Of a stretch of DNA of 64,000 nucleotides, positions 28,884-30,720 are shown piece by piece (positions within the stretch are counted from its first letter, which is position 1; every line of letters starts with the position of its first letter). The stretch is taken from the UHGV virus genome UHGV-0090252. One strand, given 5' to 3'. The DNA is from a virus. The notes under the pieces are model-generated. The model was not told the origin of the DNA and made no database searches. It saw only the letters and a program-made list of their open reading frames with translations. A program made the position numbers and the translations under genes.

Positions 28884-28962
28884 TGGTACTCCATATCGGA
28901 TTCGAACCGATACATAACACAGATTTTAAGTCTGGCCTCTCTGCCAATTGGAGTAATGGAGC
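28884..28962 (-). tRNA. tRNA with anticodon TAA (Leu-type anticodon but short variable region)
   Basis: Clear T-arm ATCGG-TTCGAAT-CCGAT and acceptor stem; loop CTTAAAA; variable region only about 7 nt. Confidence 0.5.
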
Positions 28963-28964
28963 AT

Positions 28965-29040
28965 TGGCGGGGGATGTTGGAATTGAACCAACTTCTTCGA
29001 TTTCAAAGACCGAGGTTTTAACCTTGTAAACTAATCCCCT
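28965..29040 (-). tRNA. tRNA-Gln (anticodon TTG)
   Basis: Anticodon loop CTTTGAA, D-stem GTTT/AAAC; first acceptor pair mismatched. Confidence 0.6.
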
Positions 29041-29048
29041 TTAAATCT

Positions 29049-29606
29049 TTACTTTCTCAGTGGATGAATAAAGAATGACAGCATAACTCTTTCCCTTGAG
29101 AATGCTCTTTCTTCTGGGACAACACTTTTTAGTTTCCATCCAACATAAATTCTCCAGTAAAACTGTTTACCAAAGACTTTAATTGACGGAATAAAAGCGA
29201 ATAATCCCCAAGCATTGTTGTTCCACATTAGGAGATAACCTGTCTGATTATCTTCGGGGTCAGAACTTACGTTGATATTACCTTTCCACTTAGTAACATC
29301 TTTTACATCTCTTCCTAATACATGGTAAGAGAAGTTATAAGCTTTGTTTCTCCAGAGCCATCCGACTCTCTGCATGTAGACACCCAGCTTACCAATCTTT
29401 CTAATCTTAGCCCATCTTTTAACGTGACCTTCATCACCATCAATTGGGTTGTCATATGTCTCCATCCATCTGAATCCAAAAGGTAGATGTCCTTTCTTCT
29501 CACTGTAGAATGGAACTACGAAAGGTGCTAAAATAACTGCTAGGATTGCTGCAATTGGGTCTAGTAAAGCTAAGAAAATCCATGAAGCGTACTTCAAATA
29601 TCTCAT
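29049..29606 (-). CDS. hypothetical membrane protein embedded in tRNA array
   Basis: 185 aa; N-terminal hydrophobic helix. Confidence 0.5.
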   Translation of the reverse strand: MRYLKYASWIFLALLDPIAAILAVILAPFVVPFYSEKKGHLPFGFRWMETYDNPIDGDEGHVKRWAKIRKIGKLGVYMQRVGWLWRNKAYNFSYHVLGRDVKDVTKWKGNINVSSDPEDNQTGYLLMWNNNAWGLFAFIPSIKVFGKQFYWRIYVGWKLKSVVPEERAFSRERVMLSFFIHPLRK

Positions 29607-29624
29607 TAAATAGCCTCTTTAAAT

Positions 29625-29702
29625 TGGTGTTCCAAGACGGATTCGAACCGTCACTAATACAAGGTTTGAGCTTGCATCCTCTGCCAATTGGGATACTGGA
29701 AC
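29625..29702 (-). tRNA. tRNA with anticodon CAA (Leu-type anticodon but short variable region)
   Basis: T-arm GACGG-TTCGAAT-CCGTC; anticodon loop CTCAAAC. Confidence 0.5.
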
Positions 29703-29703
29703 A

Positions 29704-29778
29704 TGGTACTCACTAAAGGACTTGAACCTTTTTCTTCATCTTGTAAGGGTGATGTTTTACCATATAAACTAAGCGAGT
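29704..29778 (-). tRNA. tRNA-Val (anticodon TAC)
   Basis: Anticodon loop CTTACAA; acceptor ACTCGCT/AGTGAGT. Confidence 0.65.
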
Positions 29779-29873
29779 GTGAAAGAGGTCTGAAGTTGTG
29801 CCGCTAACTCAACTCCGTGGAATTTGTTACGGTCTTCAGTTGACACCAGCGGTCTTTCACTTGACCTCTGAAT
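29779..29873 (-). ncRNA. structured rod-like stem-loop spacer (not tRNA)
   Basis: Nested helices AGAGGTC/GACCTCT, CCGCT/AGCGG, CAACT/AGTTG, CCGT/ACGG; no T-loop. Confidence 0.35.
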
Positions 29874-29950
29874 TGGTGCTGCTCACAGGACTCGAACCTG
29901 CATTTCCATCCTTACAAGGGATGTGTAATAGCCAATTATACGAAAGCAGC
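29874..29950 (-). tRNA. tRNA-Thr (anticodon TGT)
   Basis: Anticodon stem CATCC/GGATG, loop CTTGTAA. Confidence 0.75.
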
Positions 29951-29956
29951 ATTGTT

Positions 29957-30031
29957 TGGAGCATCCAGAGGGAATCGAACCCTCAACCTCAGTTTGGAAG
30001 ACTGTAATTTTCCCGTTTAAACTATGGATGC
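29957..30031 (-). tRNA. tRNA-Gly (anticodon TCC)
   Basis: Perfect acceptor GCATCCA/TGGATGC, loop CTTCCAA. Confidence 0.75.
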
Positions 30032-30037
30032 ACTAAT

Positions 30038-30113
30038 TGGTGGAGTCACTGAGAATTGAACTCAGTTCCCAAGTTTGCAAAACTCGAATTTTAACCATAT
30101 AAACTATGACCCC
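30038..30113 (-). tRNA. tRNA-Ala (anticodon TGC)
   Basis: Anticodon loop TTTGCAA. Confidence 0.65.
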
Positions 30114-30118
30114 ATTTT

Positions 30119-30194
30119 TGGTACAGGTGGAGGGAATTGAACCCGTCGTCTTACTGATTAAGAGTCAGCCGCATAACCATTTTGCTACACCTGT
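30119..30194 (-). tRNA. tRNA-Lys (anticodon CTT)
   Basis: Perfect acceptor ACAGGTG/CACCTGT, loop CTCTTAA; weak T-stem. Confidence 0.6.
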
Positions 30195-30201
30195 ATTAAT
30201 T

Positions 30202-30279
30202 TGGTAGGAGACAAGGGATTCGAACCCTCAAACACCAACTTCTAAGGATGGTAGGTTTACCAATTACCGTCAATCTCCC
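30202..30279 (-). tRNA. tRNA with anticodon TAG (Leu-type anticodon but short variable region)
   Basis: T-arm GAGGG-TTCGAAT-CCCTT; anticodon loop CTTAGAA. Confidence 0.5.
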
Positions 30280-30534
30280 ATTAAATCTTTTTAGAGAACT
30301 TCTAAGAACCTAAGCAACAAGGTTCCACAACAAGCTGTAATAACCTTAGAAGCCCTCTAAAAAGACCTAAAAAGGTCTTTGCATAGTCTTGTTTAATCCG
30401 GTGACTAGAACCTTTGGAGAGCTTGATATTATCTCTTCTCCGTGACACCTACTAGGTGTTTTATCAGTGTGTACGACAATACACGAGGGATACCAAAGCA
30501 ACATCCGAATGAAGCTTGGCTTTAAATCTTATTA

Positions 30535-30624
30535 GGCGGTAAGTAAAGGAGTCGAACCCTCACCGTATCTCTACAGTGGCAACTGTTTTCAAGACAGTTT
30601 GGCTACCATTAGCCGCTACCTACC
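30535..30624 (-). tRNA. tRNA-Ser (anticodon TGA), long variable arm
   Basis: 90 nt type II; anticodon stem ACTGT/ACAGT, loop CTTGAAA; CCA not fully encoded. Confidence 0.7.
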
Positions 30625-30637
30625 CCTAATAAGACTT

Positions 30638-30720
30638 TGGCATGGGACGGAGGAGTTGAACCCCTTTGAAACGGTTTTGGAGGCCGTTGCTCATGCCTTA
30701 GAGTCTTAACATCGTCCCAT
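30638..30720 (-). tRNA. atypical tRNA-like gene (possible Trp, anticodon CCA) with enlarged D region
   Basis: Perfect 7-bp acceptor ATGGGAC/GTCCCAT, T-loop TTCAACT, CCA end; anticodon arm resembles tRNA-Trp (loop CTCCAAA) but D region is about 7 nt too long. Confidence 0.4.

Follow-up and report, generated by a model that had tools for sequence, protein, structure and literature searches.

The tRNA gene cluster of a Felix O1-like phage, UHGV virus genome UHGV-0090252, contains three genes that, judged by their sequences, are tRNA-Leu isoacceptors of type I (i.e. with a short variable loop), with anticodons UAA, CAA and UAG, and a fourth gene that is most likely a tRNA-Trp with an expanded core. 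The stretch of DNA analysed is 64,000 nucleotides (nt) long and is referred to below as the window. The best explanation of the sequences is that all four are genuine tRNA genes of a polycistronic cluster; to the complete model, in which the three short genes would be used as leucine tRNAs and the fourth as tRNA-Trp, we give a probability of about 0.6. The Leu genes would then be new members of a known, little-noticed kind of tRNA, and the fourth gene a new structural variant of tRNA-Trp missed by annotation.

Three tRNA-Leu genes with short variable loops

Positions 27500-32700 of the window match dozens of Felixounavirus genomes at 96–99% identity, including those of Escherichia phages finno, JohannRWettstein and Alf5, Salmonella phage Mushroom and Felix O1; clusters organised like that of the window are also present in related phages. 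All four genes studied lie inside the cluster (Table 1), separated by spacers of 2–13 nt from at least one adjoining tRNA gene. An earlier note, based on folding the sequence by hand, had read the anticodons TAA, CAA and TAG in three of them, had concluded that these genes leave no room for the long variable arm of bacterial tRNA-Leu, and had warned that identities obtained by hand might be wrong. The anticodons were reproduced by ARAGORN in default mode, on the minus strand, and by the tRNAscan-SE calls given in the GenBank notes of phages Sf13 and Sf17, where the same three Leu calls appear. The lengths found by ARAGORN (78–79 nt, with loops of 4–7 nt) bear out the missing arm, and the warning can be lifted, since no tool returned a different anticodon or called any of the Leu genes a pseudogene. 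ARAGORN, Rfam (whose tRNA model has a gathering score of 29 bits) and tRNAscan-SE agree on tRNA-Leu for all three genes. In an analysis of Sf14 published in 2025, the Leu isotype model of tRNAscan-SE ranked first for each of them, with scores of 67.4, 49.1 and 60.2, the last being that of Leu(UAA) (PMC12482277).

As drawn by ARAGORN, the three Leu genes have a 7-bp acceptor stem, a 3-bp D stem, a D loop of 9–11 nt and an unpaired variable loop of 4–7 nt; nothing in them matches the long arm of class II tRNAs (>10 nt, forming a stem-loop). Leu(UAA) carries G1.U72, U8 and A73, a CUC/GAG D stem with an 11-nt D loop (CAAUUGGCAGA), and an unpaired variable loop of 7 nt whose last base is U48. Leu(CAA) has the D-arm motif of the family described below (UCCCAAUUGGCAGAGGA), a variable loop of 5–6 nt, (A)UUAGU, and A73; its sequence is identical across the ten Felixounavirus, Mooglevirus and Suspvirus loci scanned, and it is found at ≥99% identity in 160 phage records. 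Leu(UAG) combines G1.U72, the D loop AAUUGGUAA, a variable loop of 4–5 nt and A73. In the window, a U.U mismatch interrupts its anticodon stem (CCAUC/GUUGG), whereas the stems of relatives differ in sequence and are fully paired (UCUCG/CGAGA in Felix O1 and finno, GCUUC/GUAGC in Pectobacterium phages), i.e. the stem covaries. Two of the three Leu tRNAs of the window, and 32 of 69 aligned family members, have the G1.U72 wobble pair; the Leu(UAA) of finno has G1-C72. Long arms are retained by the tRNA-Ser (93 and 90 nt) and tRNA-Tyr (88 nt) genes that ARAGORN finds in the same cluster. The Leu genes resemble E. coli leuX and leuZ in their 3-bp D stem, 11-nt D loop (NAAUYGGYAGA), U8, U48, T loop and A73, but the E. 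coli genes, of 85–87 nt, have a variable arm that forms a stem-loop, and it is exactly there that the phage genes show a gap of 8–11 alignment columns.

Table 1. Positions in the window of the tRNA cluster, of the four genes studied and of associated elements
Feature	Coordinates	Strand	Basis or remarks
tRNA gene cluster	27689..32580	-	25 tRNAs, 19 amino acids, Trp alone unrepresented (ARAGORN)
tRNA-Leu(UAA), type I by sequence, 79 nt including encoded CCA	28884..28962	-	ARAGORN, default bacterial mode; Rfam tRNA model, 47.5 bits
tRNA-Leu(CAA), type I by sequence, 78 nt including CCA	29625..29702	-	ARAGORN, default mode; Rfam, 44.0 bits
tRNA-Leu(UAG), type I by sequence, 78 nt including CCA	30202..30279	-	ARAGORN, default mode; Rfam, 40.0 bits
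tRNA-Trp(CCA)-like gene, 83 nt including G73 and encoded CCA	30638..30720	-	ARAGORN, mitochondrial mode, Trp(cca), exact coordinates
Anticodon loop region of the Trp-like gene, C-CUCCAAA-A	30675..30683	-	Anticodon CCA at 30680-30678
Acceptor/D connector of the Trp-like gene, 9 nt	30704..30712	-	Invariant columns; 2 nt in a normal tRNA; unpaired in RNAalifold and minimum free energy folds
Putative sigma-70-like promoter, best in the cluster	31143..31171	-	TTGACA-17-TATAGT, 11/12, consensus match alone

A family of type I tRNA-Leu in phages and bacteria

BLAST searches with Leu(CAA) retrieved short tRNA-Leu genes from Erwinia phages, Enterococcus phage EFDG1 and a Mycobacterium prophage, with a common D-arm string, CCCAAYTGGCAGAGG. 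Scanning IMG/VR for this string gave at least 120 viral loci. Among the matches listed, all 107 tRNAs that carry it were called by ARAGORN with Leu anticodons (UAG 36, CAA 31, UAA 27, GAG 7 and CAG 6) and measure 74–78 nt, and A73 is present in 100 of 105 distinct sequences. A scan of prokaryotic genomes, one per species, yielded at least 120 bacterial loci; here again, among the matches listed, every tRNA with the string was tRNA-Leu (85/85, 74–77 nt), mainly encoded by single genes, and the titles sampled were largely those of Actinobacteria. The exclusive association of CCCAAYTGGCAGAGG with Leu anticodons implies selection for Leu decoding, because leucyl-tRNA synthetase (LeuRS) does not read the anticodon.

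Pairing was assessed in an alignment of 69 viral sequences plus the Leu(CAA) of the window, set against a type I cloverleaf with a 5-nt variable loop. Pairs are formed in 98.4% of cells, and 18 of the 20 pairs show compensatory changes, a result matched by no shuffle; controls in which the structure was slid along the alignment gave 35–47% pairing. In the viral loci of this family tRNA-Ser and tRNA-Tyr keep their long arms, and short and long tRNA-Leu occur together in 22 loci among the matches listed. Two closely related Pectobacterium phages are informative: at the same site, Arno162 has a 77-nt short tRNA-Leu(UAA) and Wc4-1 an 87-nt long one, both with the acceptor stem GCGGGAU/AUCCCGU and with different internal sequences. 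On its sequence this pair is a natural type I/type II swap, which suggests that the two forms are interchangeable.

The earlier note had suggested that the genes may be unusual phage tRNAs or tRNA mimics. For the Leu genes this wording has to be revised: they are neither one-off oddities nor mimics, and belong to a large type I family spread over phages and Actinobacteria. According to a 2023 review, tRNA-Leu has a long variable arm everywhere except in animal mitochondria (PMC9976931), and the sole study of a bacterial type I tRNA-Leu terms it rare (PMC6614811). On the counts given above, type I tRNA-Leu seems to be much less rare in bacteria than the literature has it. The literature searched contained no description of a short-arm tRNA-Leu in phages, and the Sf14 paper does not mention the variable region anywhere (PMC12482277). 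The kind itself is thus known, and annotation already labels the genes as tRNA-Leu. That they are type I, that such genes abound in phages and that this conflicts with the reported properties of E. coli LeuRS (see below) appears to be undescribed in the literature searched. As a side observation, single-copy tRNA-Leu genes of 74–77 nt with the D-arm motif of the phage family, mostly with UAA or CAA anticodons, were found in Nocardia, Rhodococcus, Gordonia, Mycobacterium, Amycolatopsis and others; a paper on M. tuberculosis reports long variable loops only in tRNA-Leu-2, -3 and -5.

Leucylation and codon supply

All Leu identity elements that lie outside the variable arm are present in the phage genes: A73, U8-A14, A15-U48, G18G19, A20a in an 11-nt D loop, and U54-A58 (the list was taken from PMC9976931 and PMC6614811, and the elements were read off the sequences and the leuX/leuZ alignment). 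As reviewed in PMC9976931, E. coli LeuRS requires A73, A15-U48, G18G19 and A20a and has no need of the long arm; as the same review summarises, E. coli tRNA-Leu engineered to lack the variable arm is still a substrate. Two published results tell against charging of such tRNAs in enterobacteria: the type I tRNA-Leu(CAA) of Streptomyces coelicolor was not leucylated in vitro by E. coli LeuRS, and the latter has been characterised as a type II-only enzyme (PMC6614811). In S. coelicolor itself this single type I species is charged by the organism's own LeuRS (Fan et al. 2019, PMC6614811) and shares its compartment with class II tRNAs. The phage genes are like it, and like the type I tRNA-Leu of animal mitochondria, in having a Leu anticodon, a variable loop of the 5-nt class and no arm, and the U8-A14 pair is also common to the Streptomyces and phage tRNAs. 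They differ in that all three phage isoacceptors are type I, as opposed to one of five tRNA-Leu in S. coelicolor, in that two of them have loops of 6–7 nt, and in that they have U48 where the Streptomyces tRNA has C48. Moreover, they serve enterobacterial hosts, i.e. bacteria whose LeuRS was reported not to charge the Streptomyces tRNA. Since U48 permits the A15-U48 pair needed by E. coli LeuRS, this base may be the cause of a different charging outcome.

No aminoacyl-tRNA synthetase is annotated in the complete genome of the relative JohannRWettstein, and charging must therefore fall to the host LeuRS. We propose that this enzyme would leucylate the three type I tRNAs, which would then supply the decoding of UUA, UUG and CUA/CUN in an AT-rich phage whose Leu codon usage is unlike that of its host. 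In the open reading frames (ORFs) of the window (39% G+C), Leu is encoded by UUA (28.8%), CUU (26.8%), CUG (15.1%), UUG (13.0%), CUA (10.2%) and CUC (6.1%). CUG accounts for about half of the Leu codons of E. coli. Set against such general figures for the host, the anticodons UAA, CAA and UAG match Leu codons that the phage would use more than E. coli does. A role of the three genes in translation is thus likely on sequence grounds, and the phages concerned, a classical group infecting Salmonella and E. coli that has type I tRNA-Leu only, would offer a natural case for studying recognition by LeuRS and the reshaping of tRNAs by phages.

It is improbable, in our judgement, that the short-arm tRNAs are not leucylated in enterobacteria and are instead charged by another synthetase (with recoding of Leu codons) or act outside translation. 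The in vitro result with the S. coelicolor tRNA would fit such a situation (PMC6614811), as would the isotype scores of Leu(UAG), for which tRNAscan-SE puts Leu (67.4) barely above Ile2 (65.7) and Lys (63.4) (PMC12482277), and the fact that no similar type I tRNA-Leu, chromosomal or prophage, was found in 5,426 complete E. coli genomes. The genes, however, keep all E. coli Leu identity elements, including U48 (C48 in Streptomyces); a non-Leu anticodon occurs in none of 192 family tRNA calls among the matches listed; and short and long forms substitute for each other at one locus. Recoding of three sets of Leu codons would be lethal given the ordinary Leu codon usage of the phage, and the sequences contain no identity signal for Ala (G3.U70) or Ser (long arm, G73).

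A conserved Trp-like gene with an expanded core

The fourth gene (Table 1), 13 nt upstream of a tRNA-Ser gene, was found by BLAST in 236 phage records, with at least 80% of the query covered in 233 of them. Under the 60 of these 236 matches that were listed, the annotation is 'none', 'hypothetical protein' or an unannotated record, never tRNA. The earlier note had assigned this gene a perfect acceptor stem, T-arm, CCA end and Trp-like anticodon arm, on all of which ARAGORN in mitochondrial mode and RNAalifold agree, and had suggested comparing the tRNA sets of related phages; these proved to have the same organisation, with Trp missing and the Trp-like gene unannotated.

Eleven distinct variants, from Felixounavirus, Mooglevirus, Suspvirus and two Pectobacterium phages, were aligned; those of the Pectobacterium phages are 76% identical overall, and the phage groups differ by up to 24%. 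From this alignment RNAalifold predicted a cloverleaf independently of our own model. Its stems measure 8 bp (acceptor), 3 bp (D), 5 bp (anticodon) and 4 bp (T); acceptor and D stems are joined by a connector of 9 nt (AUGUUAAGA), the D loop has 8 nt and includes GG, the variable loop has 5 nt, and G73 and CCA follow at the 3' end. Pairs are formed in 99.5% of cells and compensatory changes are seen in 8 of the 20 pairs, a number equalled in 0 of 500 shuffles. These changes are distributed over all four helices and affect four of the five anticodon-stem pairs. The slid controls gave 35–52% pairing and no compensatory changes. The CCA anticodon, U33, A37 and G73 are invariant, and the 1-72 pair is A-U, G.U or G-C. 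The anticodon loop is formally 9 nt long because 31.39 is C.A (C.C in the Pectobacterium phages) and never pairs.

The connector is the most conserved part of the gene; it is invariant even in the Pectobacterium phages, which add 2 nt. No pairing partner for it was apparent, by inspection, in the T loop, the variable loop or the 3' trailer. As to the earlier estimate of about 7 extra nt in the D region, the size was right, whereas the site is the connector between acceptor and D stems and not the D loop, as the covariation backing the CUC/GAG stem indicates. An alternative D stem, GUUA/GAGC, suggested by alignment with E. coli trpT and by ARAGORN in mitochondrial mode, was rejected because an A-to-U change in the 3' strand is compensated in the CUC/GAG stem (U-A to A-U) and not in the alternative one. 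The expansion also shows in the distance from the start of the acceptor stem to the seven-base anticodon loop, which is 38 nt in this family and 24–33 nt in other Trp-like candidates from 2.8 Mb of fetched phage and bacterial loci, and any 6-nt deletion in the connector makes default ARAGORN call a 77-nt tRNA-Trp.

The structure departs from canonical tRNA architecture in three respects: the 9-nt connector, a predicted G8-C65 pair in place of 49-65, and the C.A at 31.39. The eighth acceptor pair, G8-C65, is predicted by both RNAalifold and minimum free energy folding and is G-C in 11/11 variants, without covariation to speak for or against it; together with the 4-bp T stem of the RNAalifold consensus, it makes a division into an 8-bp acceptor stem and a 4-bp T stem probable on these models. 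tRNA-Ser and tRNA-His of this (8/4) type have been reported in phages, and some irregular 8/4 species have an extra acceptor-D loop (PMC5389517, PMC7609411). The Trp-like gene would have in common with the (8/4) tRNAs (Mukai et al. 2017) a 12-bp acceptor branch split 8/4; it is unlike them in that none of them is a Trp tRNA: they comprise tRNA-Ser, tRNA-His and allo-tRNAs, whose variable arms are usually long. A mini-ORF within the gene (AUG GGA CGA UGU UAA) was ruled out, the Pectobacterium variant having no start codon. A scan of IMG/VR for distant copies with the motif GGGACGATGTTAAGA gave 84 matches, 24 of them in a T-loop context, of which 23 are copies of this gene and one is a chance match, so that the known diversity was not widened.

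tRNA-Trp, tRNA-like RNA or pseudogene

The simplest reading, and the most likely one from the sequences, is that of a phage tRNA-Trp with an expanded core. Trp is the sole isotype that ARAGORN does not find in the cluster of the window and in nine Felixounavirus, Mooglevirus, Suspvirus and Pectobacterium phage loci scanned, and the published Sf14 list comprises 19 amino acids, Trp not being among them (PMC12482277). The identity elements for tryptophanyl-tRNA synthetase (TrpRS; set as in PMC9976931) are present, namely the CCA anticodon, G73 and A1-U72 (or G1.U72). When about 100 tRNAs of four phages were compared with the gene, the canonical tRNA-Trp of Erwinia phage Hena2, which is a Kolesnikvirus of the same subfamily, came out as the best match. 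This tRNA and E. coli trpT have the CCA anticodon, G73, A1-U72 and the 5-nt variable loop in common with the Trp-like gene, and the anticodon arm GGC-UUCCAAA-CCC is found in both Hena2 tRNA-Trp and the Pectobacterium variants. Hena2 tRNA-Trp and trpT, however, are 76 nt long with a 2-nt connector and are found by all tools; the gene studied here is 7 nt longer and has another position in the cluster. A further relative in kind is the tRNA-Trp(CCA) of coliphage T5, also encoded in a tRNA cluster and also missed by ARAGORN, which has the same C-CUCCAAA-A loop, the C31.A39 mismatch and G73; it is shortened (71 nt, with a reduced D arm) where ours is lengthened (83 nt).

In the model that we favour, RNase P and other host enzymes would process the RNA from the cluster transcript and host TrpRS would charge it, so that the phage would have tRNAs for all 20 amino acids; the connector expansion (some 7 extra nt) would either be tolerated or add a recognition or decoding property. 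A role in translation is plausible on this basis. If so, the published count of 19 amino acids (Sf14) would rise to a complete 20, and the gene would be a natural large insertion at the tRNA core and an example of how conserved, structurally expanded tRNAs escape standard annotation. Two side observations concern phage tRNA-Trp genes more generally: their D regions vary widely in the loci sampled, and the 71-nt T5 gene (NC_005859.1, 35177-35247) has a U1.U72 mismatch.

Several points weigh against an ordinary tRNA-Trp. The gene is missed by ARAGORN in default mode, by ARAGORN with introns allowed and by Rfam at the gathering score, its best Rfam match being tRNA-Sec at 23 bits. The Pectobacterium variant has one bulged nucleotide in the acceptor stem, and single-sequence folding energies are unexceptional (z from −0.3 to −1.8). 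According to the T5 annotation, the odd tRNA-Trp of that phage could not be made into an amber suppressor. We know of no tRNA characterised as functional in translation that has an unpaired 9-nt connector in the core of its L-shape. Finally, a connector that is absolutely invariant suggests the existence of a specific ligand, something for which a plain elongator tRNA would have no need.

This invariance is not explained by a plain elongator role and makes a serious rival, if one that we hold to be unlikely, of the view that the RNA is a stable tRNA-like molecule outside translation, which would exploit tRNA processing and protection (RNase P, the CCA end) and present its connector as a ligand, decoy or regulator. 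Its partner could be, for example, a host tRNA-directed defence enzyme or the Ro60-like protein encoded just upstream of the cluster. An invariant connector amid covarying stems and the failure of standard tRNA models would be expected of such an RNA. There are also parallels: the T5 tRNA cluster holds annotated 'tRNA-like stable RNAs with unknown functions' (RNA1, RNA2 and RNA3, of 73–144 nt and with no assigned anticodon); positions 32746-34161 are predicted to encode a structural homologue of Ro60/Rsr; and the RNA partners of bacterial and phage Ro60 proteins (YrlA), which are Y RNAs, have tRNA-like modules (PMC4201824). On the other hand, the CCA anticodon, U33, A37, G73 and the anticodon stem are constrained as in a decoding tRNA, and Trp is exactly the isotype that is missing. 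As for the Ro60-like protein as partner, the gene has neither a Ro-binding stem with the GNCGAAN0-1G motif nor an Rfam Y RNA match, its ends form an acceptor stem with free GCCA and not a long terminal stem of the YrlA type, and the Ro-like family, present in 710 phage records, occurs mostly outside the phage groups that bear the Trp-like gene.

A third possibility, already disfavoured and very improbable in our estimate, is that of a decaying tRNA-Trp pseudogene which, after an insertion, is no longer functional. Default tRNA finders do miss the gene, and the insertion lies at a structurally sensitive site; the 31.39 mismatch, the A.C at 49.65 when the stems are read as 7/5, and the bulge of the Pectobacterium variant could all be taken as signs of decay. 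Yet no part of the gene is better conserved than the insertion, the helices are intact, and conservation is not relaxed: 99.5% pairing with eight compensated pairs is maintained in four phage groups despite differences of up to 24%, and nearly all of the 236 records match over at least 80% of the query. The 31.39 mismatch, moreover, is common to the annotated tRNA-Trp genes of T5 and Hena2.

A broader reading, doubtful at present, would join the two halves of the cluster's peculiarities: the Leu tRNAs would have lost their arms to escape host toxins that select class II tRNAs, and the Trp-like gene would represent a new architectural class of tRNA or tRNA-like RNA. The toxin MenT3 depends on the long variable loop for anchoring, and AbiEii seems to favour class II tRNAs. 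Loss of the arm would be possible for Leu because LeuRS ignores it, and not for Ser because seryl-tRNA synthetase (SerRS) needs it. Were the first part true, enterobacterial LeuRS would charge a natural type I tRNA-Leu, against the published generalisation; were the second true, the AUGUUAAGA connector would serve specifically to be recognised, by the Ro60-like protein or by a decoyed defence nuclease, or would alter decoding through a distortion of the D side of tRNA-Trp.

The Ro60-like protein

The gene just upstream of the cluster (minus strand) encodes a protein of 471 amino acids with Pfam domains DUF2828 and DUF7788. Sequence and profile searches of this protein against the PDB were negative, and only the fold search gave matches. 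The structural model is a confident one (predicted local distance difference test score, pLDDT, 85.5); it shows a helical TROVE-like ring and a vWA domain and can be matched from end to end with structures of Ro60, Rsr and TROVE. The top 10 PDB matches all belong to these three groups, with E-values of 3e-8 to 7e-7 and query template modelling scores (TM-scores) of 0.48–0.66. In some mycobacteriophage records the homologues are annotated as 'Ro-like RNA binding protein'. Neither Rfam nor a motif search detected a Y RNA near the gene, and the motif GNCGAAN0-1G occurs at chance level, with no occurrence in the cluster.

Other features of the cluster

The putative promoter of Table 1 lies upstream of tRNA-Arg(UCU), the Trp-like gene and tRNA-Ser(UGA); in or directly before the Trp-like gene, the best promoter match (9/12) is at chance level. 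Large non-coding gaps are found at 30280-30534, 30721-30862, 30940-31186 and 31421-31851 (minus strand). Relaxed ARAGORN searches of the gaps in the cluster revealed no additional tRNA-like genes, and weak sub-threshold Rfam matches there are a hairpin at 30275-30374 (32.7 bits, miRNA model) and tmRNA-like matches at 30940-31245. The 3' ends also differ within the cluster: CCA is encoded in the Trp-like gene and in the three Leu genes, and tRNA-Ser(UGA) (30535-30624, minus strand) ends in G-C-C followed by U, i.e. its CCA is incompletely encoded. Two protein genes are located within the cluster, at 29049-29606 and 27863-28660 (minus strand), with Pfam domains DUF7338 and DUF7217, respectively; their annotation varies among relatives (holin, membrane protein or receptor-recognition protein).

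One relative has a tRNA-Ser gene with a changed anticodon. In JohannRWettstein (MZ501086.1, 86706-86798), a 93-nt long-arm tRNA-Ser(GCU) gene has undergone a G34-to-U change that turns its anticodon into UCU (Arg AGA), and the record labels this one-base-changed gene as tRNA-Arg; its homologue in the window (27769-27861) has the normal GCU. Because SerRS ignores the anticodon, the UCU tRNA of JohannRWettstein would be expected to insert Ser at AGA codons.

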